A stretch of DNA of 64,000 nucleotides, from NCBI GenBank assembly GCA_964565945.1, contig CAZMGY010000021.1, forward strand, positions 44,300 through 108,299, read 5' to 3'. Below the pieces are notes generated by a model. The model did not search any database, was not told where the DNA came from, and was given only the letters and a program-made list of their open reading frames with translations. Below, piece by piece: positions 2 through 38,003 of this stretch. A program made the translations under genes and the position numbers. Each line of letters starts with the position of its first letter. Within the stretch, counting starts at the first letter, position 1. The DNA is from an uncultured bacterium. GTDB taxonomy: Bacteria > GCA-001730085.

Positions 2-1309
<1,308 letters not shown>

Positions 1310-3286: not shown

Positions 3287-3363
3287 CGCGGGGTGGAGCA
3301 GACTGGAAGCTCGTTGGGCTCATAACCCAAAGGTCGAGGGTTCGAATCCCTCCCCCGCTACCA
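3287..3363 (+). tRNA. tRNA-Met (CAT), initiator type
   Basis: 77-nt cloverleaf read by hand: acceptor CGCGGGG/CCCCGCU with a 1-72 mismatch, D-stem GAGC/GCTC, anticodon stem with three G-C pairs next to loop CTCATAA (anticodon CAT), T-arm GAGGG-TTCGAAT-CCCTC, encoded CCA. Near-identical in layout to E. coli tRNA-fMet. Confidence 0.85.
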
Positions 3364-5202: not shown

Positions 5203-5473
5203 ATAAGGGGCGAGAACAAGATAGACCTCGCCCCCGAGAGGGAATTGGCGCGAGCAGTGGGGCTGTAAGATGCAAAGACAGTGGGTGATAATGCGCTGGC
5301 TTTGCGTAAATTCGCGCCAAATAAAAAGGGGAACATATTGCCTTCACAAAATGTACCCCTAGACTTCATGCTAGGCAGCAAAAGCTTAATAAATCCTAAA
5401 GATGCACCGTCAAACATGGCTCTCACAGCCACATTCCAAGGAGTTATTAAGATATATTTAATGCTCATAGTGC

Positions 5474-7138: not shown

Positions 7139-7142
7139 GATT

Positions 7143-19144: not shown

Positions 19145-22100
19145 TGGCTTTGATTCCCAAATTCCAAGAAGAATACAGCGCGAAAATTCCAGCATTAACG
19201 CTGCTTCATAATCTTGGTTGGACGTTCTTATCACCCGAGCAAGCTTTATCCGCTCGCAATGGCAAAACCAGTGAGGTGGTTTTACGTGAAGTGTTGAGAG
19301 AAGAACTTCGAAAACGCCGTTTTACTTTTGCAGGGAAAGAACGCGTTTTTTCTGAAAATGCTATTGATAATGTTATTGCGGAACTATGCGCGCCAGCTTT
19401 GAACGAAGGCTTAGGTGTTGCTAATGAAAGAATATATAACCATTTGCTTTATGGTATATCGGTAAAAGAGTTTATTGACGGTAAGAAAGTAAATCCAACA
19501 ATCCAAATTATTGACTGGGACAATGTTGATAATAATAGTTTTCTTTTTACCGAAGAATTTAGTGTTTTAAGAACGGGTGAAGTTGAATCCCGTAGACCAG
19601 ATATTGTTTGTTTTGTGAATGGATTGCCATTTGCAGTGATCGAAGCAAAACGTCCTGATGGTCATACCAATAAGGGATTGACCATTGATGAAGGTATTTC
19701 CCAGAATATCCGCAATCAACGCAATGATGAAATCCCTCATTTATTTGCATACTCCCAACTTCTTTTTTCAATCAATGGGGCTGATGGTCGTTATGGCACG
19801 CAAGGTACATCAAAACCGTTTTGGGCACCTTGGCGCGAAGAAGATATTTCTGAAGGAGAATTTTATATCCTGAAAAATAAAGCATTGAGTTCTGATGCAA
19901 AAGATACACTGTTTTCGCATAGACCAAAGCAGGATCGTAAGTGGTATGAAGAGCTTATAGTTGGTGGCGAACTTGCCGTTACTGAACAAGACAAAATGCT
20001 CATAAGTCTTCTTTCTCCATCACGGTTGATTGAAATGACAAGATATTTTGTATTGTTCGATAAAAAAATAGGGAAAGTGGCAGCACGATATCAGCAAGTA
20101 TTTGGTATTAAGCGTCTGATCGAGAGAATTAATACAAAAGATAATAAGGGCGTGCGTCAGGGTGGTGTTATATGGCACACCACTGGCTCTGGTAAATCTT
20201 TTACCATGGTCTTCTTGTCGAAAGCTCTTATCTTGCATGGCTCATTGAAGCAGTGCCGTATCGTGGTCGTAACTGATCGTGTTGATTTGGAAAGCCAGTT
20301 AAGTACGACCTTTAGTACAGGCGGAGAACTTGCCAGCAAGAAGGATAAAGCAGCCGCTATTGCAACATCTGGAAGAATGTTAGCAGAACAGATTTCTAAA
20401 GGTAATGAGCGAATAATGTTTTCTATTATTAACAAATTTGCTGTCGCCGCCAAAATGCAAGAGTGTCATAACCTAAGCTCTGACATTATCGTTCTTATTG
20501 ATGAAGGACATCGTTCGCAAGGCGGTGAAAACTTTATCCGTATGCGCAATGCTCTGCCTAATGCAGCTTTTATTGCATTTACAGGAACGCCGTTGTTAAA
20601 AGATGATAAAACGGAAAATAAATTCGGCTCGATTGTTCATGCCTATACGATGCAAAGAGCAGTTGAAGACAAAGCTGTTACACCTCTGCTATATGAAGAA
20701 CGTATCCCTGATCTTGATGTAAATGAACGAGCGATTGATAGTTGGTTTGATCGGATTACAGAGGGTCTCACAGATGAGCAGAAGACGGATTTAAAAAAGA
20801 AATTTGCCAAGAAAGGACACCTTTATCAATCCGAAGATCGTATTCGTTTGATTGCTTATGATATAGCTAATCATTTTGTGAAGAATATTGATGATGGACT
20901 TAAGGGGCAGATTGCTTGTGATAGTAAATTATCAGCCATTAAATATAAGCAATTCATGGATGAGCTTGGTCTGTTTAAATCTGCGGTTGTAATGTCTGCG
21001 CCAGATACCAGAGAGGGCAACACAGATGTTGATGAAGCTACTATCCATGAGGTGGCTAAGTGGTGGAAGGAAAATGTAGGATCACAGGATGAGAAAAGTT
21101 ACACAAAAAATATTGTTAAGCGATTTGAGGAAGATAATGACCTTAAAATTATAATCGTAGTTGATAAGTTACTTACTGGATTTGATGAACCGAGAAATAC
21201 AGTTCTTTACATTGATAAGCCCCTCAAAGAGCACAGCCTGATTCAAGCTATAGCGCGAGTTAATCGTTTGCATGAGAAAAAGAAATTCGGTTTGCTTATT
21301 GATTATCGCGGTATTCTGGCAGAGCTTGATACCACAATAGCTAAATATCAGGATTTGGCTAGCCGTACTCAAGGTAGATTTGATATTGAAGACCTTGAAG
21401 GTCTCTATCAACAAATGAGCACCGAATATAAAAAACTACCGCGTTTGTATAAAGATTTATTAGCAATATTCAAGAATGTTAAAAATAAAGGCGATATTGA
21501 ACAGCTTCGTCAGGTTATAGTTCCAAAAGTACAAGAACAACATGGTGAAATGGTAGATATTAATTTAAAAGCACGTGAAGACTTCTATGATCGATTAAGT
21601 GAGTTTGCTAATTGTTTGAAAGTTGCTTTGCAATCAGCTAGTTTTTATGAAGATAAAAGCTTCACAGAACAGGACAGAAAGCACTACAAAGAAACTGTTA
21701 AACAATATTCATCATTGCGTCAACTTGCCAAGGCTGATGCGGGTGAGACAGTCGATTACGACGAATATGCCGAGCAAGTAAAGAAGCTGATGGATAAGCA
21801 TGTTGTCGGTGTGGAGGTTAAAGAACCTGATGGTGTTTATGAAGTAGGTAAGATGGGTAAATCTGATCCAAAAGACTGGTCAGAAGATAAAACTCGAAAC
21901 GAAACCGATATTATAAAAACTCGTATTACTCGCATGATAGAGCAAAGCTTGCGTGATGATCCTTATGCGCAAGAAGTTTTTTCTAAGCTACTTAAGCAGG
22001 TAATAGAGGAAGCAGAAACCTTGTTTGACCATCCGTTGAAGCAATACATGCTGTTTAAAGAATTTGAAGAAAAAGTCGAAAAACGTGAAGTCGATAGTTT

Positions 22101-22419
22101 GCCTGATAAGTTTGCAGATAATAAGCACGCACAAGCCTACTATGGTGTTTTGAAAATGTATGTTGGCGAAAACCTTTCTACCATAGATGAAGAACTATCT
22201 GACCGATGGGTGGGGCTTTCTTTCAATGTAGATGAGATTATTACGAATGCTATAGCCGAGCACTCAATAAATCCCCAAAACATTGAATCCGAAATTCGAA
22301 ACAAGCTACTTCCTATGATCTTTAGTGAGTGTAAGAAAGTAGGTTCAGGAATAGATCAGACTAAGGCAATAACTGAAAGAATTGTTCAGATTGTACGCGT
22401 AGGACTAAATCACTCATGA
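19144..22419 (+). CDS. hsdR: type I restriction enzyme R subunit (endonuclease/helicase)
   Basis: 1091 aa; helicase Walker A 'TTGSGKSFTM' and DEAD-box-like 'VLIDEGHRSQ'; start overlaps the upstream stop (TAATG). Confidence 0.92.
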   Translation: MALIPKFQEEYSAKIPALTLLHNLGWTFLSPEQALSARNGKTSEVVLREVLREELRKRRFTFAGKERVFSENAIDNVIAELCAPALNEGLGVANERIYNHLLYGISVKEFIDGKKVNPTIQIIDWDNVDNNSFLFTEEFSVLRTGEVESRRPDIVCFVNGLPFAVIEAKRPDGHTNKGLTIDEGISQNIRNQRNDEIPHLFAYSQLLFSINGADGRYGTQGTSKPFWAPWREEDISEGEFYILKNKALSSDAKDTLFSHRPKQDRKWYEELIVGGELAVTEQDKMLISLLSPSRLIEMTRYFVLFDKKIGKVAARYQQVFGIKRLIERINTKDNKGVRQGGVIWHTTGSGKSFTMVFLSKALILHGSLKQCRIVVVTDRVDLESQLSTTFSTGGELASKKDKAAAIATSGRMLAEQISKGNERIMFSIINKFAVAAKMQECHNLSSDIIVLIDEGHRSQGGENFIRMRNALPNAAFIAFTGTPLLKDDKTENKFGSIVHAYTMQRAVEDKAVTPLLYEERIPDLDVNERAIDSWFDRITEGLTDEQKTDLKKKFAKKGHLYQSEDRIRLIAYDIANHFVKNIDDGLKGQIACDSKLSAIKYKQFMDELGLFKSAVVMSAPDTREGNTDVDEATIHEVAKWWKENVGSQDEKSYTKNIVKRFEEDNDLKIIIVVDKLLTGFDEPRNTVLYIDKPLKEHSLIQAIARVNRLHEKKKFGLLIDYRGILAELDTTIAKYQDLASRTQGRFDIEDLEGLYQQMSTEYKKLPRLYKDLLAIFKNVKNKGDIEQLRQVIVPKVQEQHGEMVDINLKAREDFYDRLSEFANCLKVALQSASFYEDKSFTEQDRKHYKETVKQYSSLRQLAKADAGETVDYDEYAEQVKKLMDKHVVGVEVKEPDGVYEVGKMGKSDPKDWSEDKTRNETDIIKTRITRMIEQSLRDDPYAQEVFSKLLKQVIEEAETLFDHPLKQYMLFKEFEEKVEKREVDSLPDKFADNKHAQAYYGVLKMYVGENLSTIDEELSDRWVGLSFNVDEIITNAIAEHSINPQNIESEIRNKLLPMIFSECKKVGSGIDQTKAITERIVQIVRVGLNHS

Positions 22420-23165
22420 GGAATTTAGCTACACACAGGAATGGTTCAATTCAATATGGAGATACAGCCATTAATTTTTCTATTGAACCCAGAGCAACAG
22501 ATGCACCAAAAGTTTTAATAAAAGTACATCCAGATTGCCGCGTTGTAGCACTTGCACCACCGATGGCATCTCATGATGAAATTATGCAGGCGGTAAAGAA
22601 ACGAGCACGATGGGTTTGTAAACAAATGCGGTACTTTGATAAACAACGCGAAAATATTCTCCCGCGTCACTATGTTAGTGGCGAAAGTCATTTCTATCTT
22701 GGGCGTAGGCATCTATTAAAGGTTCAAGAAAATGCTCAAGATACTCCCAAGGTGAAGTTGCTACGGGGTGTTTTGGAAGTTCAAGTACGCAAAGTAAGCC
22801 CAGAAAAAATAAAAGCAATGCTTTTTGATTGGTATAGAGTTCGTGCTAAAGAAGTATTTGATCGTAGGCTAGAAGAAGTTGTTTCTAAAACATTGTGGGT
22901 AAATGATAAGCCATCTATTCACCTTCTTTCTATGCAGACGCAATGGGGGAGTTGCTCGCCGAAAGGTCAGTTGACAATTAATCCTCATTTGGTGAAAGCA
23001 CCAAGAGATTGTATTGATTATGTGCTACTTCATGAGCTTTGCCATATTGCAGAACATAATCATAGTGAACGGTTCTATCGGCTAATGAAGCAAGTTATGC
23101 CTCATTGGGAAAAAGTAAAAGAAAGACTCGATGGTATGGCTTACTTTTATTTGAACGATACTTAA
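22416..23165 (+). CDS. M48-family zinc metallopeptidase (DUF45/YgjP-like), R-M associated
   Basis: 249 aa; HExxH zinc motif in 'YVLLHELCHIAEHNHSERF'; ATGA overlap with the hsdR stop. Confidence 0.8.
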   Translation: MRNLATHRNGSIQYGDTAINFSIEPRATDAPKVLIKVHPDCRVVALAPPMASHDEIMQAVKKRARWVCKQMRYFDKQRENILPRHYVSGESHFYLGRRHLLKVQENAQDTPKVKLLRGVLEVQVRKVSPEKIKAMLFDWYRVRAKEVFDRRLEEVVSKTLWVNDKPSIHLLSMQTQWGSCSPKGQLTINPHLVKAPRDCIDYVLLHELCHIAEHNHSERFYRLMKQVMPHWEKVKERLDGMAYFYLNDT

Positions 23166-23283: not shown

Positions 23284-26200
23284 TTGGGGAAAAAAGAAGC
23301 AAGGCGCACTAAGTCAAAGTCAACACCGCGTCAAACAGGTGGGGCAGGATACGACTTCGAAGATTTGATTGCAGCCTGGATGATGGTGAAGATGCTGCGT
23401 GAGATTAGGTTGCCAGGTGTTGAGGAGTTTGGTACAGCGATTCAATGGCAAGCGGAAGTGTTAGGTTGGGAACAGATCGATGACCTTCTGGTTACATGTG
23501 TGGTTGAAGAAGAAAAGAAAAAGCAGCTAGCCATCTCTTGTAAAAGCAACATGCAAGTTAGTGGGTCTGGGCTTCCATTTGATTTTCTCAAAAATGCTTG
23601 GTCACTATGGATAAAAGGCGAGCCTTTTAATAAGGAAAATGATTGCATGATGTTGGTTCAGAAAGGCAGCAATCAAAATTTTTTTACTGCTTGGGCAGAC
23701 CTAAAATATTGGTGTTCTGAGGGCGATGTAGAAACGGCTCTAGCACGAATTACAGCTTCTCAGAAACATAGTAAAATATACAATGGCGTTAAGGCTCCTG
23801 ATAAAAGCAGTAATTATACAAACGAAGATACTATTGCGCTTATACGCAGTTTAGAAGTTATTCCTGCAGATTTTCATTTAGCTAGTTCGGAATACGAAGA
23901 CACTTCATTATCCCATTGTCGTGATCTTTTGCAGGATGGCTCTGAAGAGACTGCAAAAAAGCTATGGGACTGGCTTCTCAAGAAAGCTAAAGTCAAACGT
24001 ATCTCAGGTGGAACATTACAGCTATCAGAGTTGTGGCAAGAATTGGTTCCAGCATTTGATTTAAAAGACCATCCAAACTTTCTTTCATCATGGAAGTCTC
24101 TTAAAGCTATATCCGAAGAATATAAGAGATCAATCGAAATTGAATTGCCTAATGGTCATAGTGTCATAAGGCCTGCCGAAGAAGACCTGATAGAGCATCT
24201 TAGAGATGGTCCAATATGTATTGTATATGGTAGCTCTGGAAGGGGTAAATCGGCGGTTGTTAAATCTACTTTAGATAAGAAGCTATCTGATTGGAATCAG
24301 GTTTGGTTTTCTCCGGAAAACCTAGACTTAGCTTCAAGTGAAAGGACTCGCTCAGAAGTGGGATTGCTTAGACCTTTGCAGGATGTACTTGCTCACTCAT
24401 CGGAAGAAAAAAATGTCCTAATTATAGATTCTGCTGAGAGGATTAACCCCGATAGCAGAAAAATTGTAAAGTCGCTTATTTCCAACCTATTGATACACAA
24501 TGGCGAACAGAAGAGTCGTTTGAACTGGCGAGTTATCATTGTTGGGCAAACCGAGGCTTGGGCATCTGGCAATTTTCATGAAATTTCAGGACTCTCTTCT
24601 ATTCAGCCTATAGAAATTTCTTCCCTTGACCCTTCGGATGTCAGAGCAGCTTTGCATTCAAGCAATCACTTATCTTGGCTTGCTTCGGATAACGAAGCGC
24701 TTATAGCCTTAGGTAACTTGAAAACTTTGGCTTGGGTAATGCGAGCTGGAACCATTTTTCCAAAAGGGGGAATGAATAGCATATCGTTGCCTGCAATCGC
24801 TGATCGTTTATGGTCGTATTGGACAAAAGATAAAATAAAACTTCAGAATCTTCTGATGCAACTTGCTGAACGTGAAGCTCAATTTGAACGTAGCTTTCCT
24901 ATCAGTGGGTTTGGTATTGATGTAAGCCAAGCTCTTGATGAAGGTTTGGAATGCTTGCCACTACGAAAAAGAAAAGAGACTAATTCAATCGAGTTTGAGC
25001 ATGACCTGGGTGCTGATTGGGCAAGGTTTCAGCGTTTAAAAGAAATAAAAAATGACATAAGCTCTTGGGCACCATTTGCTAGCAACCCTCTCTGGCATAA
25101 TGCTTTGCGCATGATGGGGCAACTCCTATTACGAGAAAAAACTGAACAAGGAACACTATGGGATGTTGTTTATGATGAAGCAGAAAAAACAAAAGTTGAA
25201 AATCCTTTAGCAGCAGATATTCTCTTAGATTCTTTGTGCCTTGATCCATTTGCTGCGCATTATCTTAATGAGCGGTCGGATATACTTTTTGCAGATAACG
25301 GGGCTCGTTTAAACCGCTTATTAAAACGTTTTCATCATATAGCGACCGTTTCAAATGTCTCTAGCGAGTCCTTGGACATTGATCCCTCGCTAAAATTGTA
25401 TTTAGAAGACATGCAAAGGTTGCCAATCTATGGTCGTTGGCCACAAATTGCACAATTTCTTTCAGATCACAAAGAACAAGTTTCCAGCCTAATCTCACCA
25501 ACTATTTCAAAACTATGTGAGACTTGGCTTACAACAACACCTCTCTATCTTGATCCTGAGGCAAATACGCCGATGCCCTATAGAAAGGTATTTGCAGAGC
25601 TTGCTTTAAGCACGGTAAGGACTTTACAACTTGAGCAAAAGAAAGGGCACTTGTGGCTCACAGATGACAGCGAAAAGCCTCTTTATGGGGCAGCATTTGC
25701 GGCTGTAAACGATCTTCCTGACGAAGTCTGCGAATGGGCTTTAGAAATGGCCTGTAGAAGACCTTGCAAAAAAGAAATACCTGAAGCGCTTGCAGCCTAT
25801 CGAGAAGAAAGAAGAAAAGAACATAGAGAAAAATTGCGCACTGATAAGGCTTATCCTGAAAGGCACGAGCGTTTACGTTCAATGCCTTCCGGTATTTCAA
25901 GCCATAGAGATTTACCTCCATGGCCATTAGGGCCACAAGGTAGTGTAGATAATACTTTTCGAGATTATTGCTTGAACTCAAACTCCATGGCTAGGCTGAT
26001 GTATCTAAGGCCAGAAGTTGCAAGCGAGTGCCTTCTTGCAATGCTAATAGATTATTCGCGTAGCCCTCTCCGAGATGATTTAGGTCTAGTGTATAGTCAC
26101 ACAGGATACCCTACGGCATATTGGAAAAGTCCATTTTTCCAGTTTTTACAGTTGAATAGCACTATAGCCATGGATTCCCTTATTTCGCTCGTTAATTTTT

Positions 26201-28536
26201 GTACAGATCGATGGGCAGATGATTTTGAGAGCGATTATAGTCTAGAGGTAAGTCTACGAGATGGTCAAAAACAAAGTTTGAAAGGAAACGGACATGTTTT
26301 CTCCTGGTCTCAAGAAAGCTCCACATCTAACGGACAGCTCTACTGTGCGTTAGCAGCACTAGAAAAATGGATTTATATTGAAATTGATAAGGACGCAGAT
26401 GTAGAGCCTGCGCTCAAGAGACTTATCGAAAACTCAAATTCTGTTGCAATAATAGGCGTGCTCCTAAATGTCGGTAAATACAAACCAAGCTTATTTACAA
26501 GCGCATTACAACCTTTTTTAGGGGTATATGAATTCTATCAAGCCGATGACAACCGCCTTCTAGATGCCGGGCATTGGTATGATGCTGGGGCATGGCCGTG
26601 TGAGGGTGAAAAAATATTTGAAATGGCCAAAGAGTGGCACTTTGCTCCGCACCGGAAAATTCCGTTGCGGCAATTAGCTGTTCAACTTGCTCTCAGTGAT
26701 AAAGAGACAGCCTCTTTTATTAAGGAAGCTTCTGAAAGTTGGGAAACACATTCAGTCGAGGAAAAATATGATTTAGAGGTAAGGATATTAAAAGCTGAAC
26801 TTGATCCTGAAAATTATAAGCCAGAAAAAGACCAACAATCTGGGCAGACATTATTGAGGTGTTATTACCCAGACAAGCTACAGAAGGACATAGAAGATTT
26901 TCAGAAAAGAAAAAGTCCGAGATGGCATGCTGTTACTATACCTATTCAATGTGAAGAATTATTGGCTTCGTCTCATAACATTACTGATGAAGAGGCTGAG
27001 AGATTAGCTTCTGCACTCAATGTTGTTCCTATAGAAGAAGATGAAGAGAGCATCCTCGCGACAGAAGCGGCGATCGCAGCTACGTTGTTAATAAAGGCAC
27101 CTAGCTGGCTAGACAAAAACCCTGATCTTAAAAAGAAAACAAATGAAATTATTCAAAATATAATTTCTAGTATTGGAGACACCTTAGAATCTTTGAGAGC
27201 TACCGGACATCTTATGAGTGATAGGTCGCTTGCCTTTGCCACTCATGTTGTTGTTGAAGAATTTATAAACAACCCGTCCCATGATAGGGACGTAGATGCT
27301 TCTGTATTAAGAATTTTAACCAGTGGTGACAACCAGGCTGTCTTCATTTTGATGAATGCGGCTTATCAAAATAGAGATAAGCTAGGTGATCGCTGGTGGC
27401 GTCTCATACAAATATCAATCTTTTGTGCTGGACTTAATAGCCTTAGTCCGGGCTTTAGAGAAGATGAAGATAAATCGATTGAATTACGTTGGGCGCGTTG
27501 GTTGATATGGTTGCGCACCCGTGATTTAAACGTTTCAGTAAATGCAGAAGCTATTGACCCAATCGGATTAGCGGTTCGTGTGGATCGTTTAAAAATGGCT
27601 CGTATTAAACGGCTATTTGGAAAAGATACAGACGGACGTTTGCGTTACTATCATCGAGGGTTTTTTGGCCTTGAGACCTACACGTTGGATAAAATGTTTT
27701 CATGGATGCTGAGTGATCATGGGCAAGGGGCTGACAATAGTTCGGATGTGCGTCTCTTAACTCAAAAACTTTGGGTGTTCGAAGCTTGGAGAAAGCAAAA
27801 AAGCGAAGAAGCCAACGATGAAGATAATGACCGTGATAGCCTTCCAAGCGATTTAGGTTACTCGCTTCTTCAAAAGCTATCAAAGCTTATGCTGACTGCA
27901 CAAAAAGATGAAGCGTCTAAGATTTGGAAGCCGATACTTTCTATGGGCGTAGATGGTCATCATTCTATTGAGCATTTCATTGATGGGTGGCTGCTAGGAG
28001 TGGTTCAAACCAAAAATACAAACTCCCTTTCTCAGTTTTGGAGAGAATTAATTGAGTTTGCGCTCTTATCTCCCAACTGGTCTCCCAATAAATATTGGTA
28101 TAAAGGAGAAGAGTTATTTCGACATCTTTTAGGATTTGGCTTGATTAATCTTGCGGAGTTTGAAGGTGCTCAAAACATTATTTTCGAAATAAAGGATCTG
28201 TATAAACGTTGGGCTGATACACACCTTTCTCAGGAAGAGGAAAATATAGCAGGCTTTGCATATTTTCTTTCCTCTAAAGTGGGGGCACCTATTCGGTATG
28301 ATGGTCTGCTGTGGATCAGAGACTCCTTGCGACCTCCCAATCCTGCATATTGGCGTCGAATGGAAACCGGACGCTCTCTTGTTGATCTTTTGGATGTTAT
28401 CATTACCGAAGAAACTAAACAAATATCTTCAGATTCTGAGTTTCGCGATGCGTTATTGAGGGTTGCAGCACATTTGGCTGATAGGCAAGTTCCTATTGCA
28501 TTATTGTTGCAAGAGAAGATTCGCCAGGTGCATTAG
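23284..28536 (+). CDS. very large (1750 aa) P-loop NTPase of unknown function; candidate defense protein
   Basis: Single uninterrupted ORF, AAGGAG RBS and apparent TTG start; Walker A 'YGSSGRGKSAVVKS' near residue ~320 and Walker B-like 'VLIIDSAERI' ~60 aa later; long helical C-terminus; no family recognised by eye. Confidence 0.8.
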   Translation: MGKKEARRTKSKSTPRQTGGAGYDFEDLIAAWMMVKMLREIRLPGVEEFGTAIQWQAEVLGWEQIDDLLVTCVVEEEKKKQLAISCKSNMQVSGSGLPFDFLKNAWSLWIKGEPFNKENDCMMLVQKGSNQNFFTAWADLKYWCSEGDVETALARITASQKHSKIYNGVKAPDKSSNYTNEDTIALIRSLEVIPADFHLASSEYEDTSLSHCRDLLQDGSEETAKKLWDWLLKKAKVKRISGGTLQLSELWQELVPAFDLKDHPNFLSSWKSLKAISEEYKRSIEIELPNGHSVIRPAEEDLIEHLRDGPICIVYGSSGRGKSAVVKSTLDKKLSDWNQVWFSPENLDLASSERTRSEVGLLRPLQDVLAHSSEEKNVLIIDSAERINPDSRKIVKSLISNLLIHNGEQKSRLNWRVIIVGQTEAWASGNFHEISGLSSIQPIEISSLDPSDVRAALHSSNHLSWLASDNEALIALGNLKTLAWVMRAGTIFPKGGMNSISLPAIADRLWSYWTKDKIKLQNLLMQLAEREAQFERSFPISGFGIDVSQALDEGLECLPLRKRKETNSIEFEHDLGADWARFQRLKEIKNDISSWAPFASNPLWHNALRMMGQLLLREKTEQGTLWDVVYDEAEKTKVENPLAADILLDSLCLDPFAAHYLNERSDILFADNGARLNRLLKRFHHIATVSNVSSESLDIDPSLKLYLEDMQRLPIYGRWPQIAQFLSDHKEQVSSLISPTISKLCETWLTTTPLYLDPEANTPMPYRKVFAELALSTVRTLQLEQKKGHLWLTDDSEKPLYGAAFAAVNDLPDEVCEWALEMACRRPCKKEIPEALAAYREERRKEHREKLRTDKAYPERHERLRSMPSGISSHRDLPPWPLGPQGSVDNTFRDYCLNSNSMARLMYLRPEVASECLLAMLIDYSRSPLRDDLGLVYSHTGYPTAYWKSPFFQFLQLNSTIAMDSLISLVNFCTDRWADDFESDYSLEVSLRDGQKQSLKGNGHVFSWSQESSTSNGQLYCALAALEKWIYIEIDKDADVEPALKRLIENSNSVAIIGVLLNVGKYKPSLFTSALQPFLGVYEFYQADDNRLLDAGHWYDAGAWPCEGEKIFEMAKEWHFAPHRKIPLRQLAVQLALSDKETASFIKEASESWETHSVEEKYDLEVRILKAELDPENYKPEKDQQSGQTLLRCYYPDKLQKDIEDFQKRKSPRWHAVTIPIQCEELLASSHNITDEEAERLASALNVVPIEEDEESILATEAAIAATLLIKAPSWLDKNPDLKKKTNEIIQNIISSIGDTLESLRATGHLMSDRSLAFATHVVVEEFINNPSHDRDVDASVLRILTSGDNQAVFILMNAAYQNRDKLGDRWWRLIQISIFCAGLNSLSPGFREDEDKSIELRWARWLIWLRTRDLNVSVNAEAIDPIGLAVRVDRLKMARIKRLFGKDTDGRLRYYHRGFFGLETYTLDKMFSWMLSDHGQGADNSSDVRLLTQKLWVFEAWRKQKSEEANDEDNDRDSLPSDLGYSLLQKLSKLMLTAQKDEASKIWKPILSMGVDGHHSIEHFIDGWLLGVVQTKNTNSLSQFWRELIEFALLSPNWSPNKYWYKGEELFRHLLGFGLINLAEFEGAQNIIFEIKDLYKRWADTHLSQEEENIAGFAYFLSSKVGAPIRYDGLLWIRDSLRPPNPAYWRRMETGRSLVDLLDVIITEETKQISSDSEFRDALLRVAAHLADRQVPIALLLQEKIRQVH

Positions 28537-28597: not shown

Positions 28598-28810
28598 TTA
28601 CAGGTTACTTTGTGCGTAGTAATCGAGGTAAACCTCTTCAACCTTGTTTCCATTTGGTACTTTGACATCATGATGACCAGTGTCTAATTTTCCCTTTTCA
28701 ATTTGATCTGCAAGTGATCGTAATACCCAAGCCACGGCTTTGCCATTGCTGCAATCAATCTCTATATCGCATTTTAACCGTTCTTCGAAGTCTGGATCAC
28801 CATCGAGCAT
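28598..28810 (-). CDS. hypothetical small protein
   Basis: 70-aa ORF with AAGGAG RBS 9 nt upstream of ATG; convergent with the large NTPase gene. Confidence 0.4.
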   Translation of the reverse strand: MLDGDPDFEERLKCDIEIDCSNGKAVAWVLRSLADQIEKGKLDTGHHDVKVPNGNKVEEVYLDYYAQSNL

Positions 28811-28920: not shown

Positions 28921-29100
28921 TCAAGGGCATGGTGGCATATAAGTCAATTCACTTTGAATATTTTCAATAGATGCTAAAGCATTTCTTCTTTGATGCGTAT
29001 GAGGTTCACTCATCGCAAGTTCGTTAAAAGCATTTCTTAAATATCCATGTAGCTCACTTTCGTTTTTTGCTGCCAATTCAAATCTTGTTACCAGTCTCAT
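28921..29100 (-). CDS. hypothetical small protein
   Basis: 59 aa from internal Met 'MRLVTRFELAAKNESELHGYLRNAF...' with AGGAGG RBS 6 nt upstream. Confidence 0.4.
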   Translation of the reverse strand: MRLVTRFELAAKNESELHGYLRNAFNELAMSEPHTHQRRNALASIENIQSELTYMPPCP

Positions 29101-29558
29101 TTTTACCTCCTGTTTGTGGAGGTCGCGTTTATTCACGACCTTTGTTAAAGCCGCTTGTGCGCTGGAAAAATGGACTGCACCTTTGGTCGAAATATATGGA
29201 GAAGCGTGGCAAATCTCATGCTTGCAGTTCTAATGATCTCAAGTGCTTAAATAGGTTTTATAAAAGTCTGATAAAAACGCCCCTCATACAAAAGAGTAAG
29301 AGAGGCTGAATAACTAAATTGTTGGCTCACTTGAAAAAAATAAGAGAGCCAGTTGGTTTAATAGAAAAGATGAAGGACGCTGCGCCCCCTCAAATTCAAG
29401 AATAATGACGGTTTCCATTTGGGTAAGTCTCAAATAGACCCTCCGCAATTTTTCTGGATTTTTTCACCCCCGCCTAGTCGCCCTAGTCGGCAGAAGTTCA
29501 GGCGCGAGGCAAAAACGCTTCGCTAAGAACTTCAAAACCGAATTTAGGAGATAATAAA

Positions 29559-30071
29559 ATGAGTGCAGAAATTAGAATTTATGTGGCATGTTTGGCAGCG
29601 TATAACGGCGGTAGATTGCATGGCGTTTGGATTGACGCAACCGATGAGCTGGACGATATTCAAGAGCAAGTAAATATGATGCTAAAAGAAAGCCCAGAGC
29701 CAGACGCAGAAGAATGGGCGATACATGATTACGAGGGTTTTGGTGGTTATAGCGTTAGCGAATATTCAGGGTTTGAAGAGCTTCACGATGTTGCGTCTTT
29801 TATTGAAGAATATCCAGAAATTGGTGGGGAGCTTTTAGATCATTGCTCAGACCTTGAAGAAGCCAGGAAAGCCATAGAAGAAAGCTATGCAGGATGCCAT
29901 AAATCACTTGCAGATTTTGCCGAGGAAACAACCGAGGAAACAACCGAAATTCCTGAGCATTTACGGTATTACATTGATTATGAAAAAATGGGGCGTGATA
30001 TGGAAATGAGCGGAGACGTTTACACAATTGAAACAGGTTATGAGGAAGTGCATATATTTTGGAATCATTAA
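29559..30071 (+). CDS. ardA: antirestriction protein ArdA
   Basis: 170 aa, acidic; 'IYVACLAAYNGGRLHGVWIDATD', 'EEWAIHDYEGFGG' and 'LRYYIDYEKMGRDMEMSGDVYTIE' parallel the conserved ArdA blocks (e.g. Tn916 ArdA). Confidence 0.85.
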   Translation: MSAEIRIYVACLAAYNGGRLHGVWIDATDELDDIQEQVNMMLKESPEPDAEEWAIHDYEGFGGYSVSEYSGFEELHDVASFIEEYPEIGGELLDHCSDLEEARKAIEESYAGCHKSLADFAEETTEETTEIPEHLRYYIDYEKMGRDMEMSGDVYTIETGYEEVHIFWNH

Positions 30072-30095
30072 AATAAATAATTATCCAAACATTTA

Positions 30096-30119
30096 AGGGC
30101 TCTTCGGAGCCTTTTTTTT
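30096..30119 (+). terminator. rho-independent terminator downstream of ardA
   Basis: GGGCTC-TTCG-GAGCCT hairpin (UUCG tetraloop) followed by a T8 run. Confidence 0.6.
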
Positions 30120-30349
30120 AGTGCTTAAAAAAATCGCCACCGAAAGATGGTACTTTTCGGCGGTTGGTGAGCGTTTCGTCGCTCAATCTCGACCACTGTT
30201 TTGCCAGTGGATTACGACAAGGGTAATATTTATTGTTTGGTAGTTATATGTTTATAGGTGTAACCACTTCTATAATTTGGTGCATTAAGATAGTCTAGTT
30301 ATGTGAGGGGTTAGATATGAAGATAATTGAAGTATCAGGAATATAGAAA

Positions 30350-31625: not shown

Positions 31626-32351
31626 ATGAGTATTGCACAAGCCATTGAAAATTCGGTTAAATCCATGCCTTCTGGCCAGATTTTTGGCTATCAGGAGTTG
31701 CCTAGCTACGCTAAATCACCAGGGGCTGTGATTAAGGCGATTAGCCGTCTGGTGGCTGATAAGAGGTTGGAACGGTTTTCTAAGGGCAAGTTTTACGTAC
31801 CCAAAAAAGGCATGTTAGGTGCTAGAAAACCCTCAGATAGTGAGTTGATCCGTTCAATGTTGTACAAGGACGGGCGTTTGCGTGGTTATGTGACTGGCCT
31901 ATCTCTCTATAATCAACTGGGTCTTACAACGCAGGTGCCGCGCACAATTACGGTTGCCTATAACGGTGGTCGTCAGAAAAAAGAATATGGAACAATTCGT
32001 ATTAAGACGGTCGTTACACGTGTTCCGATTAAGGAAAAGGACGTTAAGCTTCTTCAATATTTGGACGCGCTTAAAGACATAAAAAAAATTCTAGATTCTG
32101 ATGTAAATCTTTCTCTTAAGATTATTCGCGGCTATATATCTAAGTTATCTGATCGTGAGCGTAGTCGTTTGGTGGAACTGGCGCTAAATTACTATAACCC
32201 TCAAGTCAGAGCATTGGTTGGCTTATTGTTCACAGATTTAAAACTCTCGGTTCCAAGCTCTTTGGCTCACTCACTTAACCCAACAACGACCTATAAGCTT
32301 AAGCTGGATCGCTCAATGTGGCCAATGGCCAAAGAATGGAATATCCAATAA
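31626..32351 (+). CDS. AbiEi-like antitoxin / regulator (partner of the AbiEii nucleotidyltransferase)
   Basis: 241-aa gene with GGAG RBS; stop overlaps the AbiEii start (TAATG). Assignment is mainly by operon partner; the sequence may equally be a DUF6088-type partner. Confidence 0.5.
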   Translation: MSIAQAIENSVKSMPSGQIFGYQELPSYAKSPGAVIKAISRLVADKRLERFSKGKFYVPKKGMLGARKPSDSELIRSMLYKDGRLRGYVTGLSLYNQLGLTTQVPRTITVAYNGGRQKKEYGTIRIKTVVTRVPIKEKDVKLLQYLDALKDIKKILDSDVNLSLKIIRGYISKLSDRERSRLVELALNYYNPQVRALVGLLFTDLKLSVPSSLAHSLNPTTTYKLKLDRSMWPMAKEWNIQ

Positions 32352-33151
32352 TGAATTTACATGAGGATGATGAAGCATTTGCAGAATTAGTCGCTGTAAC
32401 CGCTGAAACAATAGGCTTGCCGCAGGTCTATGTTGAAAAAGATTATTGGGTTACAAAAGCGCTTAAGAATTTATCAGAATCCAAGCATGTAGGTGAAGTG
32501 GTCTTTAAGGGTGGTACATCTTTATCCAAGGCCTATAGGTTAATTGATCGTTTTTCAGAAGATATTGATTTGGCTGTACTTGCAGGCGGCAAAGGTGATT
32601 CTGCACGTAAGAAACTACTTAAGAGCGTAGAGACTACTGCCAGCGAAGGCCTGATATGTGTGAAAGATGATGCACGGGAATCCAAAGGCTCAAAATTTCG
32701 TAAAACAGTTTATCAATATCCGCGAAGTATAGAAGGTGGTGACTTTGGGCAAGCATCTCCTGAATTATTGATCGAGGTTAATACATTTACCAATCCTGAG
32801 CCTTTTGAAACGCGGGAGCTGCAAACATTTATTGCCGAAGTTCTTACTGAAAAAGGCGAAACAGATTTAATAGCACAATATGTGCTTGAAGGTTTTCCTG
32901 TAAATGTATTGTCGGTCAGGCGTACCCTTGTTGAGAAAATGCTTGGTGTAATTAAAGATAGTTATCATGAAGACCCCGTTGCAAGGATGTCTGTTCGAAT
33001 TCGACACATATATGATGTTTGTCTGATATTAAAGAATGATGAATATCGCGACTTTATTGCTAGCGATGAATTTATGTCGCTATGTAATATTTGTATTGAG
33101 GATGAAAAGGCAGGGTTTTTGCCCCCTCTGATTGTTTCGATACACCATTAG
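32351..33151 (+). CDS. nucleotidyltransferase AbiEii/AbiGii toxin family protein (DUF1814), apparently frameshifted near the 3' end
   Basis: 'VVFKGGTSLSKAYRLIDRFSEDIDL' is the DUF1814/AbiEii hallmark; a second frame (33106-33303) continues protein-like after a T5C5 tract. Confidence 0.7.
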   Translation: MNLHEDDEAFAELVAVTAETIGLPQVYVEKDYWVTKALKNLSESKHVGEVVFKGGTSLSKAYRLIDRFSEDIDLAVLAGGKGDSARKKLLKSVETTASEGLICVKDDARESKGSKFRKTVYQYPRSIEGGDFGQASPELLIEVNTFTNPEPFETRELQTFIAEVLTEKGETDLIAQYVLEGFPVNVLSVRRTLVEKMLGVIKDSYHEDPVARMSVRIRHIYDVCLILKNDEYRDFIASDEFMSLCNICIEDEKAGFLPPLIVSIHH

Positions 33152-33641: not shown

Positions 33642-34160
33642 TTAAATCTCCGGCTCAAAATCGATATCTTGAGCAGGGGTATCAAAGCCCATGCCTTGCT
33701 CCTGGCTTTTGCCGTGGGATTTACTGCGCTCTGCAACGCGGGCTTTCTTCTTCTCATGGGATTTTAGGTGCGATAAATCGCGGATTAACTTGGCACGCTC
33801 TTCCTCATGTTTTTTATGTAGCGAGTTAAACTGTATTTGTAGTTTCTGGCGCATTTCTAATTGCTTATGGATCAGCTCTTCACGCTCTGCTTGGTCGCGC
33901 TTATGCGCCTGCCAGGTTTCACCGTCATTAGCTTTGCGCTGCTTCCAATAGGAGCCATTTAGCTTGTCCCATAGACCTTTAAAACCTTTGCGTATCTGCG
34001 ATACCCTAAGGGCTTCTTCCTTTTGCCAGCGGGATTCCTGATAGGCGTTTTGCGCGGCTCGGTCTTTTCGGTGCTGCAATGTCATAGCGGCCTTGGTTTT
34101 AAGTAGAGGCACTAATTCTTTATTGTGATCTTTATCCAGCTCGCCGATGAATTTCTTCAA
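33642..34160 (-). CDS. mobilization relaxase, C-terminal charged portion (split gene)
   Basis: Highly charged K/R/E/Q-rich coiled-coil-like sequence; its frame stays open upstream to ~34278 and overlaps the end of the N-terminal relaxase ORF in a +1 frame. Confidence 0.5.
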   Translation of the reverse strand: MKKFIGELDKDHNKELVPLLKTKAAMTLQHRKDRAAQNAYQESRWQKEEALRVSQIRKGFKGLWDKLNGSYWKQRKANDGETWQAHKRDQAEREELIHKQLEMRQKLQIQFNSLHKKHEEERAKLIRDLSHLKSHEKKKARVAERSKSHGKSQEQGMGFDTPAQDIDFEPEI

Positions 34161-34272
34161 TAGGGTTGATGTTTTTCCACTGATCTTATTCTTAACTGTT
34201 TCAACGCTCGGCAGGTCTTCTGCTTTGCCAAGACGTTTTTCTATTTTTTTTTCTTCGCTGTGAGCTGGCGGG

Positions 34273-34962
34273 TTAGAGAATAAACCTCACCGTGTATATA
34301 TCTATAGCTACAAAGCCGCGCTTATCTCCTTTGGCCAGCCAGTAGCCAGATTCCAGGAGCGCTTGCTCAAAGCTTTTCTTATCATCCGACCTTGCCCAGC
34401 ATTGCTGTAAGTTGGCCTTGATGGTCTTGGGGTTTTGATTTGTGCGCGCCGCTTGCTGCCACTCAGCCCTTGTGAAGTTGAGCGGGTTTTTCTGGCTCTT
34501 ATCAATAAAGCCTTTGGGCAGTTGCCAACCATGATCTAAATAAAGCTGTTTTGATATATCTTTGAGCTTATTTTTAAAAAAGGGCTGATCAATTGCCTTC
34601 ATTTCTTTGGCATCAATGCGGCTCCAAACACAATGCGCATGACGGCGGCCATGTTTTTCATGAAAGACAATGACGCGGGGCTGATTTTCAAGCCCCAGCT
34701 TTTTCTCTATTTTTGTTAGTGCATCCTCAAATGCAGCTACCAGCACTTTTTCATTTTGTGGTGGTGATAGCGATAGGGAGAACATGAAACGTGAACATCT
34801 TGTACCTTTGCTAATCGCATGGATTTCATTAAGTGCGCCGCCTATTGTTTCACTGGCAAAACCCGATACTTCATGCACCCGCACATGCTCATTTTGCTCA
34901 CCATTCATGAGGTGCTTTGCCATTTGGCGTGCGCCGCCGCGTTTACTCGCCTTGATGATCAT
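34273..34962 (-). CDS. mobilization relaxase N-terminal nuclease domain (MobA/MobL-like)
   Basis: Start 'MIIKASKRGGARQMAKHLMNGEQ...' and three-His motif 'VIVFHEKHGRRHAHCVWSRID' typical of MOB relaxases. Confidence 0.65.
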   Translation of the reverse strand: MIIKASKRGGARQMAKHLMNGEQNEHVRVHEVSGFASETIGGALNEIHAISKGTRCSRFMFSLSLSPPQNEKVLVAAFEDALTKIEKKLGLENQPRVIVFHEKHGRRHAHCVWSRIDAKEMKAIDQPFFKNKLKDISKQLYLDHGWQLPKGFIDKSQKNPLNFTRAEWQQAARTNQNPKTIKANLQQCWARSDDKKSFEQALLESGYWLAKGDKRGFVAIDIYTVRFIL

Positions 34963-35353
34963 CTTCTTTTTCCTGCAAACCCAGAGCGCGGGTGAGGGTA
35001 TTTCTAATCCAGTGAACCGAGCGGCTGGCCTCATTTAAGGCCTTTAGCACATCTATATTCACAGGCAGGGAACCTGAATTTGCAGCCCTAGCAAGCTGAT
35101 TGATATTGTTAGCTATACGAGATTGCCCAAAGGCAGCTAGCAGTCTGGCTAATTCTTTTTGGTCTTTGACGGGCTTCTTGCCCCGTGTTCTATTTTTGGG
35201 GATTTCATCACCAAAGAGAAGAAAGCGAATATAGGCAGATAGCGGGCGATCACCTGCGGCCAGCTCTAATGTCTTTCTTTCATCCTCAGTGAAGCGAATA
35301 CAATATGGGGAGGGGTATGTATATTTTTGATCCGTAGGGGTTTTTTTAGACAT
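34943..35353 (-). CDS. mobC: mobilization protein MobC-like
   Basis: 'LARLLAAFGQSRIANNINQLARAANSG' resembles the MobC signature; sits immediately upstream of, and overlaps, the relaxase gene. Confidence 0.55.
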   Translation of the reverse strand: MSKKTPTDQKYTYPSPYCIRFTEDERKTLELAAGDRPLSAYIRFLLFGDEIPKNRTRGKKPVKDQKELARLLAAFGQSRIANNINQLARAANSGSLPVNIDVLKALNEASRSVHWIRNTLTRALGLQEKEDDHQGE

Positions 35354-35783
35354 TTTTCTGTCCCCCTGTTGCCGGAAGGGCAGAGTTACTGGTAGAATAC
35401 GCATCCTTTGAAGAGCGGACTCCCTCTATTGCAGATAGTAGCGCCTCTTCTTGTAGCGGATCAGCAGCAATATCATAGCAGTTACCAGCGGTAGATAGCG
35501 TTGGCAACCAGCCCCCGCTACCAAATATAATCTATACCACAGTAGCCTTTAAGCTTATTGTGGTTTTTTTGTTTATGCTCAAATTCGGTTTGGGCTAACA
35601 CTGTGCTAACAAAATATTTTTACTCTTCTTTATTGTTATCTCACCCACTCTTTAATTTTTAACCTTTTTGTAACTTCAATTTATTAAATTCCTTATTACA
35701 AAAAAACTTTTAAATAAAAAGTCCCCCTGAGTAGATATGATATAATCACTTAAATTATGCACTGTTATAAGGATTAAACTTTA

Positions 35784-36038
35784 ATGAACATAGAAACTTT
35801 AAATCTATTAATTAAAGATGGCGAAGGCATTCGTGTCAAATTTAAGGAGAAATATTCTTCTAAAATAGCCCGTGATATAGTCGCATTTTCACATACTAAA
35901 GGCGGATATATTTTGCTTGGGGTTACGGAAAAGCTTATTGAAAGAAAATATCCCTTTTTTTTTCAACAGAACCCCCTAAATCCCCCTTATCAGAGGGTAT
36001 CTTATGTTTGTTTAAGAACTAAGTCAGCACCAAGTTAA
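35784..36038 (+). pseudogene. truncated AlbA_2/Schlafen-like (divergent AAA) domain gene fragment
   Basis: 84 aa; 'EGIRVKFKEKYSSKIARDIVAFSHTKGGYILLGVTE' resembles the N-terminus of AlbA_2-domain proteins, but the ORF stops after ~80 aa; flanked by 22-bp direct repeats. Confidence 0.35.
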
Positions 36039-36119
36039 AAATCTCGGCTAACACCATGCTAACAAAACACCCCAAACCATCAAAAAGCAACATCAACCAA
36101 GACAAAAATAAAAAGCCCC

Positions 36120-36161
36120 TAACCCAAAGGCCGAGGGTTCGAATCCCTCCCCCCGCTACCA
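36120..36161 (+). repeat. attR-like direct repeat of the tRNA-Met 3' end
   Basis: TAACCCAAAGGCCGAGGGTTCGAATCCCTCCCCCCGCTACCA matches tRNA positions 3323-3363 with one substitution and one extra C. Confidence 0.8.
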
Positions 36162-36187
36162 AAAATTCATTTTTAAAGGAGACAGCT

Positions 36188-37291
36188 ATGTGGAATCGTC
36201 ATAATCAGGATGGTTTAGCTCGCACTGGTTCACTTCATTTATCTCATGGTGATGTGCCCACTCCAGCCTTTATGCCTGTAGGGACACAAGCTAGCGTCAA
36301 AACAGTTACCCCCGATGAGCTTAAAGCCATCGGGTATCAGCTTATTTTAGGCAATACGTATCATTTGAATTTGCGCCCAGGAATAGCCCTAATTCAAGAG
36401 TTCGGTGGGTTACACCGTTTTATGAATTGGGACCGAGGAATATTGACCGACAGCGGGGGCTTTCAGGTGTTTAGTTTGGCGCCTTTACGCAAAATCACCT
36501 CTGAAGGGGTAATTTTTCAGTCGCATATCGATGGCTCGACTCACCTTTTAACTCCAGAAAACGTGATTGATAAACAGCTCGCGATGGGAGTGGATATTGC
36601 TATGGTTTTGGATGAATGTCCACCTTTTCCTGCGGAGCGCTCTTATGTAGAAACATCGATGCAGGTCACCCTCGATTGGGCCAAACGCAGCCGGACTTAT
36701 CATCCTAAGGGAAGCTCTGGACCTAAACTTTTTGGCATTGTGCAAGGAGGCATGCATGCCGATTTACGTAAGCAATGTGTGGAGCAACTAATCGATTTGG
36801 ATTTTGAGGGCTATGCAATGGGGGGGCTTAGCGTTGGGGAAAATAAAGCGCTTATGTATGAGATGTTTAGTTTAGTGGCGGATATCCTTCCCCAAGATTC
36901 TCCTCGCTATCTGATGGGTATTGGAACACCCGAAGACCTTCTTGAAGGAGTGGCTTGTGGTGTTGACATGTTTGATTGTGTTTTGCCGTCACGCAATGCG
37001 CGCAATGGGACTCTTTTCACGTGGCAAGGTAAGGTAATAATTAAAAATCAGCGTTGGGAAAAAGTGCAAGATCCGATTGACCCAACATGTACTTGTTACA
37101 CGTGCAAAAATTTCAGTGCGGGTTATTTGCGTCATTTATTTCGCTCTAGAGAAATCTTATCGTTGCGCTTGAATACCTTGCATAATTTGCACTTTTTTTA
37201 TCAACTCATGCATCAAGCGAGACAAGCGATTAGCGAACAAAGGTTTGGGCTATTTAAGGAAAAGTGTTTGGAGGCCTGGTCCCAAACTTAA
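36188..37291 (+). CDS. tgt: queuine tRNA-ribosyltransferase
   Basis: 'GGFQVFSL', 'MGIGTPEDLLEGVACGVDMFDCVLPSRNARNG' and zinc site 'CTCYTCKNFSAGYLRHL'; AGGAG RBS upstream of ATG at 36188 (track ORF starts earlier at 36056, across the att repeat). Confidence 0.9.
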   Translation: MWNRHNQDGLARTGSLHLSHGDVPTPAFMPVGTQASVKTVTPDELKAIGYQLILGNTYHLNLRPGIALIQEFGGLHRFMNWDRGILTDSGGFQVFSLAPLRKITSEGVIFQSHIDGSTHLLTPENVIDKQLAMGVDIAMVLDECPPFPAERSYVETSMQVTLDWAKRSRTYHPKGSSGPKLFGIVQGGMHADLRKQCVEQLIDLDFEGYAMGGLSVGENKALMYEMFSLVADILPQDSPRYLMGIGTPEDLLEGVACGVDMFDCVLPSRNARNGTLFTWQGKVIIKNQRWEKVQDPIDPTCTCYTCKNFSAGYLRHLFRSREILSLRLNTLHNLHFFYQLMHQARQAISEQRFGLFKEKCLEAWSQT

Positions 37292-37327
37292 TTAAAATAA
37301 ACGACTAATAAAGATCAACAAGAGGCG

Positions 37328-38003
37328 CTACCAAATAAAGAATACTTTGTTAGCTGGGTTTTTATATGTATCGAATGTTGAATAGGCCTTATCTCTGCCG
37401 TTGTCTTTGAATGCCCCAGTGCTCCCCATCAAGTTTTGGTGACTAAATTTAGAGAAACTGCTTTGCCTCCAAGGCTTGCCCGAGGCGGTAATAATACCCT
37501 CTTTGTTTAGTTCAGCCACTATCGCTTTTGGGGATTTATTTTTATAGGCGTAATCTTCAAATATGTGCCAACTGATACTGGCTTGCTCCCCGATGATTTC
37601 ACAATCACCTCGAATAGCCTCACCTTCGGAATTCTGTTTTTTCATCACCTTATAACCATAAGTTAAACCACCGCTGGATTTTCTTTTTTCAACACGTTCT
37701 CGTAATCCACGGCCTGTTTTATCGGCAAGGTTTTTGAGGAAACAGGGCATTCATCGTTCTTTTTAGCCTAATATGAAGTGCTAAGATTTTACCTTTGCTG
37801 AGCGTAAAAATTTAAACTCCTGCAAATTCCATGCGTTTAAACAGACCCGCAATATTTTCCTGATCACGAAAAAGATAATTGAACGCCTCGGCTACCAAGA
37901 TATCAAATTCATCATTCATGGCAGCCGCCATAAGGGCTTGAATACCTGGACACAAAAGGGAGAGGCCCCCAGATATTCCAGCATCGATGTATGACATACC
38001 CAT
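37328..38003 (-). pseudogene. degraded large serine recombinase (remnant paralog of the island recombinase)
   Basis: Two short ORFs (37812-38003, 37328-37750) align to residues ~45-320 of the 3320-5011 recombinase ('DILVAEAFNYLFRDQENIAGLFKRMEFAGV' vs 'DILICEALDRLSRDQEDIAGIYKRMEFAGV'); catalytic N-terminus missing, frame broken. Confidence 0.6.

Follow-up and report, generated by a model that had tools for sequence, protein, structure and literature searches.

The open reading frame at positions 29559 to 30071 of the window, i.e., of the whole 64,000-nt stretch of DNA analysed here, encodes a genuine and full-length ArdA, as judged by its sequence, its charge and the predicted fold of two of the three domains. 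The gene lies within the segment 3365-35524, which has the predicted make-up of a tRNA-integrated mobilizable island combining defence cargo with an anti-defence gene in its backbone. We consider it likely that ardA is a backbone inhibitor of type I restriction which acts upon entry of the island, that the type I restriction-modification (R-M) system of the island itself is cargo, and that ardA is normally silent or expressed at a low level. Here, we infer the timing of ArdA expression, its target enzymes and the role of a structured cassette located directly upstream of the gene.

The ardA gene and its terminator are located as follows:

29559 to 30071, plus strand: ardA, open reading frame of 170 aa with ATG start, encoding a predicted DNA-mimic anti-restriction protein
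30095 to 30122, plus strand: intrinsic terminator 3' of ardA with an 8-bp stem, a UUCG loop and a T8 tail

An AGGAG Shine-Dalgarno sequence is located 9 nt upstream of the ATG, and the terminator consists of AAGGGCTC-TTCG-GAGCCTTT followed by T8. Upon searching with the Pfam profile PF07275 (ArdA), the translated reading frame was matched with an E-value of 4.8e-48 and 164 bits over profile positions 1-155 of 155; the curated cut-off of this profile is 27 bits. Using phmmer, residues 4-161 were aligned to residues 3-160 of the 2w82 chain (Orf18 of Tn916) with an E-value of 2.1e-15, and the same chain is also present in the EcoR124I-ArdA complexes 7bto and 7btr. An AF2 model, for which an alignment of 25 relatives was used as input, reached a mean pLDDT of 73.6; residues 1-100 were predicted confidently and residues 126-160 in the C-terminal, dimer-forming part had values below 50. 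A Foldseek search with this model returned 2w82_B and 2w82_A as top matches (E 1.6e-8, probability 1.00, TM about 0.5), and 2w82 was the sole significant match in the PDB, with the next E-value being >2. The assignment to ArdA and the UUCG-tetraloop terminator, both proposed previously in a reading of the sequence without database searches (the sequence-only reading), were thereby confirmed. Furthermore, the protein contains 43 Asp and Glu as compared to 9 Lys and Arg residues, with a pI of 4.14 and a net charge at pH 7 of -33.7 (about -34), as is expected of a DNA mimic. Among ArdA proteins, a C-terminal "antirestriction motif" is conserved at the interface of the dimer. The block YYIDYEKMGRDMEMSGD of the protein studied here aligns with NYIDYQAYGRDLDLSGT of Orf18 and is nearly invariant across the clade; the model is poor in this part.

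At E-values up to 1e-3, 5770 homologues of this ArdA were found. The best 120 of these 5770 are 67-95% identical to it, and those which carry a name originate from Gamma-, Beta- and Alphaproteobacteria. In a sample alignment of 25 close homologues, 56 columns were invariant. Determination of dN/dS (Nei-Gojobori) for ardA gave 0.087, 0.087 and 0.078 at dS values of 0.28, 0.98 and 1.83, respectively, and a dN/dS of about 0.09 indicates strong purifying selection. Plasmids rarely carry members of this ArdA clade; in PLSDB, 199 records matched with a best identity of 62%, and no plasmid of Enterobacteriaceae was among the PLSDB matches listed for this ArdA.

The limits of the island are given by a tRNA gene and two direct repeats:

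3287 to 3363: tRNA-Met gene, the attachment target of the island
3352 to 3364, plus strand: left direct repeat CCCCCGCTACCAA, the 3' end of tRNA-Met
35512 to 35524, plus strand: right direct repeat CCCCCGCTACCAA, the right end of the island

The last 11 bases of tRNA-Met recur at 35513-35523 and at 36151-36161. An exact match of the Tgt protein led to contigs from other samples (L085-L091), in which window positions 2740-3364 are joined to 35512-37399 with 100% identity and a 13-nt overlap. At least seven contigs thus contain the empty attachment site, and their junction defines 3365-35524 as one insertion of 32,160 bp with 13-nt direct repeats. In addition, a metagenome contig of 32,192 nt which encodes an identical ArdA spans exactly this 32,160-bp unit. 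Hence, ArdA, the type I R-M system, a STAND NTPase, AbiE, relaxase and MobC, an integrase and a coupling protein share one insertion, and the earlier claim that ardA and the type I system reside on the same element proved to be correct. The presence or absence of the island between flanks of 100% identity implies a recent gain or loss.

From left to right, the island comprises serine-recombinase pieces, the VirD4/TraG-type coupling protein, a VWA protein, the tyrosine-recombinase-like integrase and the type I module, followed by the STAND NTPase, two small reading frames named o70 and o59, ardA, a SEC-C protein, the AbiEi/AbiEii pair, a reading frame named o106, the relaxase and mobC. Its left part contains the following genes:

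3323 to 5011, minus strand: split serine recombinase with Resolvase domain (4481-5011) and zinc ribbon (3323-4198), inside the island and adjoining the tRNA
5474 to 9504, minus strand: VirD4/TraG-type coupling protein, VWA protein and two further open reading frames, which form a left-end block with a G+C content of 0.45-0.48
10641 to 11933, minus strand: tyrosine-recombinase-like integrase with DUF6538 and Phage_int_SAM_5 domains

The G+C content along the island varies from 0.37 to 0.48, which is in line with a mosaic origin, and the composition of the left-end block 5474-9504 suggests a separately acquired module. A reading frame of 315 aa (9697-10644, plus strand) converges on the integrase gene and resembles, over a short N-terminal stretch, the accessory protein TnpA of the IS66 family (E 4e-9). 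A Recombinase-domain fragment is also located outside the island at 37331-37750 on the minus strand. Furthermore, the 3' end of tRNA-Met is repeated as a 36-nt copy with one indel at the end of the segment 35525-36161, about 640 bp in size and directly right of the island. This segment is an older remnant and is kept in the strains with an empty site; it makes the tgt reading frame called by the program 44 codons too long, the real start being at 36188.

The cargo of the island consists of the type I R-M module, a STAND NTPase and an abortive-infection pair:

14734 to 23165, plus strand: type I R-M module identified by Pfam and PADLOC, consisting of a partial hsdS, hsdM, hsdS, a DUF4917 gene, hsdR and a YgjP-like gene
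14734 to 15330, plus strand: extra partial hsdS of 198 aa with one target-recognition domain, located just 5' of hsdM
15327 to 16850, plus strand: hsdM with N6_Mtase and HsdM_N domains
16816 to 18075, plus strand: hsdS, with two Methylase_S stretches corresponding to two target-recognition domains
18032 to 19144, plus strand: DUF4917 gene between hsdS and hsdR, PADLOC candidate PDC-S21 (E 2e-119)
19144 to 22419, plus strand: hsdR with HSDR_N, SWI2_SNF2 and T1R_D3 domains
22416 to 23165, plus strand: YgjP-like metallopeptidase gene directly 3' of hsdR
23284 to 28536, plus strand: STAND NTPase of 1750 aa, regarded as cargo; Avs4 is matched in part (residues about 930-1210), and P-loop domains are hit weakly
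31626 to 33151, plus strand: toxin-antitoxin pair AbiEi/AbiEii for abortive infection, located as cargo between ardA and the relaxase gene

HsdM of the island could be aligned over its full length to HsdM of EcoR124II (E 4.5e-66), which ranks among its nearest solved chains, and HsdR matches HsdR of EcoR124I (E 3e-29). With an intact hsdM, a two-domain hsdS and an hsdR encoding both a nuclease and an SF2 motor, the type I system is complete. The partial hsdS might be a spare specificity cassette. A distant copy of the DUF4917 gene is found at the equivalent position in the related locus L060. The sequence-only reading had placed ardA about 6.4 kb downstream of a complete type I system; completeness held, and the distance of 6.4 kb applies to the end of the YgjP-like gene, with the ardA start being located 7.1 kb from the hsdR stop codon.

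On the other side of ardA, the right end of the island carries the mobilization genes:

33642 to 35034, minus strand: MOB relaxase gene with frame breaks between about 34305 and 34244 and an N-terminal open reading frame at 34273-35034
34943 to 35404, minus strand: mobC, relaxosome accessory gene, whose conserved upstream region runs into the att core

Relaxase and mobC are located 4.2 kb 3' of ardA on the minus strand, in agreement with the close vicinity noted earlier. The relaxase gene carries frame breaks, which had escaped the sequence-only reading: it contains an in-frame stop (34275-34273), the frame is broken within a (TA)n tract and again at A9 (34252-34244), and tblastn assigned its N-terminal 236 and C-terminal 204 residues to different frames. 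These breaks are common to the window and to four near-identical metagenome contigs obtained from different sequencing runs. In relatives, the relaxase is encoded by a single open reading frame of 436-448 aa; the N-terminal nuclease domain of the window relaxase is intact. The split gene could be a pseudogene or could be expressed in a slippage-prone manner, and the breaks render present-day self-mobilization of the island doubtful. Among the island reading frames scanned, relaxase and MobC domains and the coupling protein were present and no mating-pore genes were seen.

Related loci were analysed to distinguish backbone from cargo. Loci of species-representative genomes with 10-kb flanks (80 in total) were mapped with the proteins of the window, and 64 metagenome contigs were included additionally. 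Two small reading frames upstream of ardA had to be considered:

28598 to 28810, minus strand: o70, seen solely in near-identical copies
28921 to 29100, minus strand: o59, small open reading frame divergent from ardA

A recurrent layout was observed, in which o59 is located on the opposite strand about 600-850 nt 5' of ardA, followed by ardA, 0-9 kb of variable genes, in some cases o106, and finally relaxase and mobC opposite in strand to ardA. By tblastn, o59 was found alongside ardA in 39 of 80 relatives; it has no match in Pfam or NCBIfam. In a subgroup of relatives, a reverse-complemented 3' end of tRNA-Met or tRNA-fMet adjoins mobC. Hence, the family integrates at tRNA-Met/fMet genes with mobC at the right end, as the island of the window does. 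Judged from these alignments, o59, ardA, relaxase, mobC and the tRNA-Met att site form a backbone which is conserved across many Proteobacteria. No description of a tRNA-Met/fMet island family with an o59-ardA-relaxase-mobC backbone was found in the literature searched.

The region 5' of o59, by comparison, is a variable cargo site. Among the 59 loci with a flank of at least 8 kb, 20 have an hsdR-like gene 5' of ardA; without exception it shares the strand of ardA, and it ends 1.8-8.3 kb short of this gene. The HsdR proteins of the relatives are 23-93% identical to that of the window, hence several hsdR lineages are paired with ardA. A PADLOC analysis of 94 upstream reading frames from 23 loci revealed that type I components dominate. 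In the closest relative (L093), in which ArdA is 95% identical, the relaxase is intact (445 aa) and the AbiE pair is a different one; at positions 1-9346 of this locus, a BREX system consisting of a PglX-like methyltransferase, GmrSD, PglZ, BrxL and HATPase replaces the type I R-M system and the STAND NTPase. Two further relatives (L094 and L095, ArdA 84% identical) have the relaxase module directly after ardA with no cargo in between. Because ardA recurs and the upstream block varies, ardA is backbone and the type I R-M system is exchangeable cargo. The composite island considered in the sequence-only reading is thus supported, with a conserved ardA backbone and an upstream block that swaps between type I (20 of 59) and BREX.

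Directly 5' of ardA, a structured non-coding cassette was identified, which comprises the following elements:

29372 to 29558 (not assigned to a strand): structured non-coding cassette of about 190 nt directly 5' of ardA
29371 to 29392: hairpin H0, GAGGGG...CCCCTC
about 29392 to 29465: domain I, a long hairpin with a stem of about 20 bp and the near-invariant arms AAAATCAAGAAAAATGACGG and CCGCAATTTTTCTGGATTTT
29467 to 29485: two tandem copies of the CCTAGTCG box
29487 to 29535: domain II, a hairpin adjoining the Shine-Dalgarno sequence

Domain I encloses an apical hairpin which varies freely. The flanks of domain II, TCGG/CCGA or TCGC/GCGA, covary and do so together with the first CCTAGTCG box. 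In many loci, H0 continues into a T-rich tail when read on the minus strand, and in locus L007 a second minus-strand terminator follows. Folding furthermore indicated that part of the CCTAGTCG box region is able to pair with the Shine-Dalgarno region.

This leader, termed class A, shows nucleotide-level conservation in 41 of 80 loci; nhmmer detected one copy per locus, always directly 5' of ardA. An unrelated leader (class B) is present about 130 nt before ardA in 25 loci (L014, L017, L039, L044 and 21 more). It contains the mutually exclusive hairpins GGGGTT..AACCCC and CCCC-AAAA-GGGG followed by a T-run and looks like an attenuator. For class A, a consensus structure of 53 pairs was obtained, in which 92% of the pair cells were paired as compared to 43-53% in slid controls. 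Both sides were changed in 18 pairs, as compared to 4-11 for slid partners, and 97 double-change cells were counted as compared to 9-19. The last 122 nt of the cassette are identical in the window and in the closest relative L093, although dS of ardA is 0.28 for this pair, and roughly half of the pairwise sequence comparisons show a difference at synonymous sites of ardA beyond codon 8. The cassette is thus far more conserved than the synonymous sites of ardA.

An independent metagenome scan for a 22-nt cassette motif, in which ardA was not used as a criterion, yielded 64 contigs. Among the 54 of them with at least 300 nt downstream of the motif, 52 contained ardA on the same strand, with a distance from motif to ardA start of 92-132 nt and, in one case, 243 nt. 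The two remaining contigs carry a truncated ardA and an ardC (L118), respectively, the ArdC protein having an ArdcN domain (E 2e-38) and a zincin-like peptidase domain. The occurrence of ardC behind the cassette argues for a module of anti-restriction genes which is not specific for ArdA. The cassette matched no family in Rfam 15 at the gathering threshold, with hits at E-values up to 5 being chance hits alone, and nothing on its sequence was found in the searchable literature.

Several functions of the cassette were considered. It contains a variable inverted repeat followed 8 nt further on by ACCCTCC, an arrangement which we take to resemble the nick region of RSF1010. A function as oriT was rejected as the main reading and is considered unlikely: class B relatives keep the same relaxase, mobC and att region, yet they have the other ardA leader, and in Pseudomonas loci the cassette is present although this relaxase is absent from the surrounding 10 kb. 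Small minus-strand genes (MKKSRKIAEG..., METVI...) were discarded, as their frames are not conserved and indels in the variable hairpin shift them. The same holds for an upstream open reading frame on the plus strand, which varies in length and frame and, upon inspection, has no ATG in Pseudomonas loci. Scans and inspection of the hairpin stems on either strand revealed no acceptable -35/-10 pair as in an Frpo-like promoter, nor did they reveal any sigma-70-like promoter within the cassette that could serve ardA. An antisense promoter inside ardA was rejected as well, with synonymous variation being normal beyond about codon 8. Counts of G-U versus A-C combinations (52 versus 61) favour neither strand as the folded one, and folding energies are similar on both strands.

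We propose, tentatively and with clearly less than even confidence, that the cassette is a hitherto undescribed cis-regulatory module which times the expression of anti-restriction genes on proteobacterial islands to entry. Two versions may be envisaged. In the one that we prefer, with low confidence, a short cis-encoded minus-strand RNA ending at H0 would control the alternatively pairing ardA leader and switch it between a free and an occluded Shine-Dalgarno sequence. As the main alternative, the cassette may be a promoter active on single-stranded DNA or a priming signal. Either version would result in a burst of ArdA after transfer followed by silence.

Dimers of ArdA imitate a stretch of bent DNA of about 42 bp and fill the DNA-binding groove of the type I methyltransferase core; restriction is blocked, and so is modification when the dose is higher (PMC2731889, PMC12707154). 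Early expression of ardA from entering DNA has been described (PMC12707154, PMC11541004). For the island, we assume that after transfer the new host would produce ArdA, which would occupy the DNA-binding groove of the HsdM2S1 and HsdR2M2S1 type I complexes of the recipient; with these complexes blocked, the unmodified island would survive. ArdA would be needed once the unmodified island DNA becomes double-stranded and would be off later, such that the cargo R-M system can defend the host. A silent or low state of ardA, probably brought about by the conserved structured cassette, would avoid the conflict between ArdA and the R-M system of the island. This temporal reading is based on the constraint on the cassette and on a precedent from Enterococcus faecium AUS0233, in which 15 kb separate ardA1 of Tn916 from a type I R-M system on the chromosome and deletion of ardA had no effect on the resident type I system (PMC12323599). 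The homology of the island HsdM to HsdM of EcoR124II, which has been solved with ArdA bound, makes such a target plausible; no hint of immunity of the island's own type I enzyme to ArdA was seen in its sequence. The location of ArdA beside a type I R-M system is no paradox, as action on recipient enzymes at entry is expected.

ArdA might instead serve as an establishment factor for the type I system of its own island, as the sequence-only reading suggested with the term regulated self-inhibition. It would then transiently block both incoming and resident HsdR complexes while the chromosome becomes methylated and would be shut off afterwards. The same-strand hsdR 5' of ardA in 20 of 59 relatives, with divergent hsdR lineages, speaks for such a role, and a tightly constrained cassette is compatible with a timer of this kind. 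Furthermore, establishment of a new R-M system requires a delay of restriction, and mutations in the ArdA dimer interface abolish anti-modification selectively and retain anti-restriction (PMC12707154). However, about two thirds of the relatives have no hsdR within 10 kb, and the BREX system of L093 as well as the relatives without cargo argue that ardA is independent of a linked type I system. Type I systems moreover possess establishment controls of their own, namely proteolysis by ClpXP and tuning of assembly (PMC12707154). We therefore consider an establishment role unlikely.

Two further explanations appear much less probable. The breaks of the relaxase gene at (TA)n and A9, which are shared by the window and four metagenome contigs, and the recombinase fragments flanking the region would fit an island decaying in place, with ardA as a leftover without a role. 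Such decay is hard to reconcile with the intact state of the ardA reading frame, its ribosome-binding site, its terminator and the cassette, with a dN/dS of about 0.09, and with the recent gain or loss implied by identical flanks; we regard it as very improbable. Even less credence is given to the idea that ArdA mainly titrates DNA-binding regulators of the host and thereby alters host gene expression, rather than acting against restriction. Two reports describe effects of ArdA on the transcriptome and on reporters in E. coli (PMC10746416; PMC13300388), whereas the cassette of L118 precedes the unrelated anti-restriction gene ardC, which ties the locus to anti-restriction, and ardA always travels with transfer genes. 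An action of ArdA against recipient type I enzymes at entry of the island remains the explanation that we favour.

Among known systems, ArdA of the island resembles Orf18 of Tn916: both belong to the same Pfam family, their lengths are 170 and 165 aa, respectively, and 158 residues can be aligned with about 30% identity including the YIDY..GRD..SG block. The predicted fold of two of the three domains matches, the protein is very acidic, and the gene is located on an integrated transferable element. It differs from Orf18 in belonging to a proteobacterial clade, the members of which are 62-95% identical to each other and are mostly found on chromosomal islands. The leading-region ardA genes of the enterobacterial conjugative plasmids ColIb-P9 and pKM101 are expressed early from the single-strand promoters Frpo/ssi. 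Here as well, an anti-restriction gene is located near transfer functions with a conserved, hairpin-rich non-coding element 5' of it, and by analogy the functional logic may likewise be a burst of expression at entry. In contrast to these plasmids, the element described here is an integrated mobilizable island, and no -35/-10 pair could be placed in the stems of the cassette.

The island also resembles integrative mobilizable elements and defence islands with its integrase, the tRNA att repeats, relaxase and MobC, with no mating-pore genes among the reading frames scanned, and a cargo of type I R-M, STAND NTPase, AbiE and DUF4917; it differs from the former by the frame breaks in the relaxase gene of this copy. 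An ardA gene on a mobilizable defence island fits present views on mobile elements and on anti-defence functions in leading regions (PMC11541004). As in AUS0233, an ardA of the presumed active type and an intact type I system are located close together in one genome. There, however, the two reside on separate elements, whereas they share one insertion here and the pairing recurs across the family.

The presence of ArdA on a transferable element with restriction cargo is expected biology, so that the finding itself changes little. Two aspects merit further work, namely the repeated occurrence of ardA together with type I systems and the cassette associated with anti-restriction genes. If the cassette indeed acts as a timer, this would account for how ArdA and a type I R-M system can coexist on one island, as they do in about one third of the relatives. 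The cassette may further provide a handle on the question of how anti-restriction genes are confined to entry, which so far has been answered mainly for F-like and IncI plasmids. The island family is well delimited and contains a hot spot for defence genes, most commonly occupied by type I R-M, for which BREX can be exchanged, and these tRNA-Met islands offer a natural system for studying how mobile elements combine genes for attack and counter-attack.
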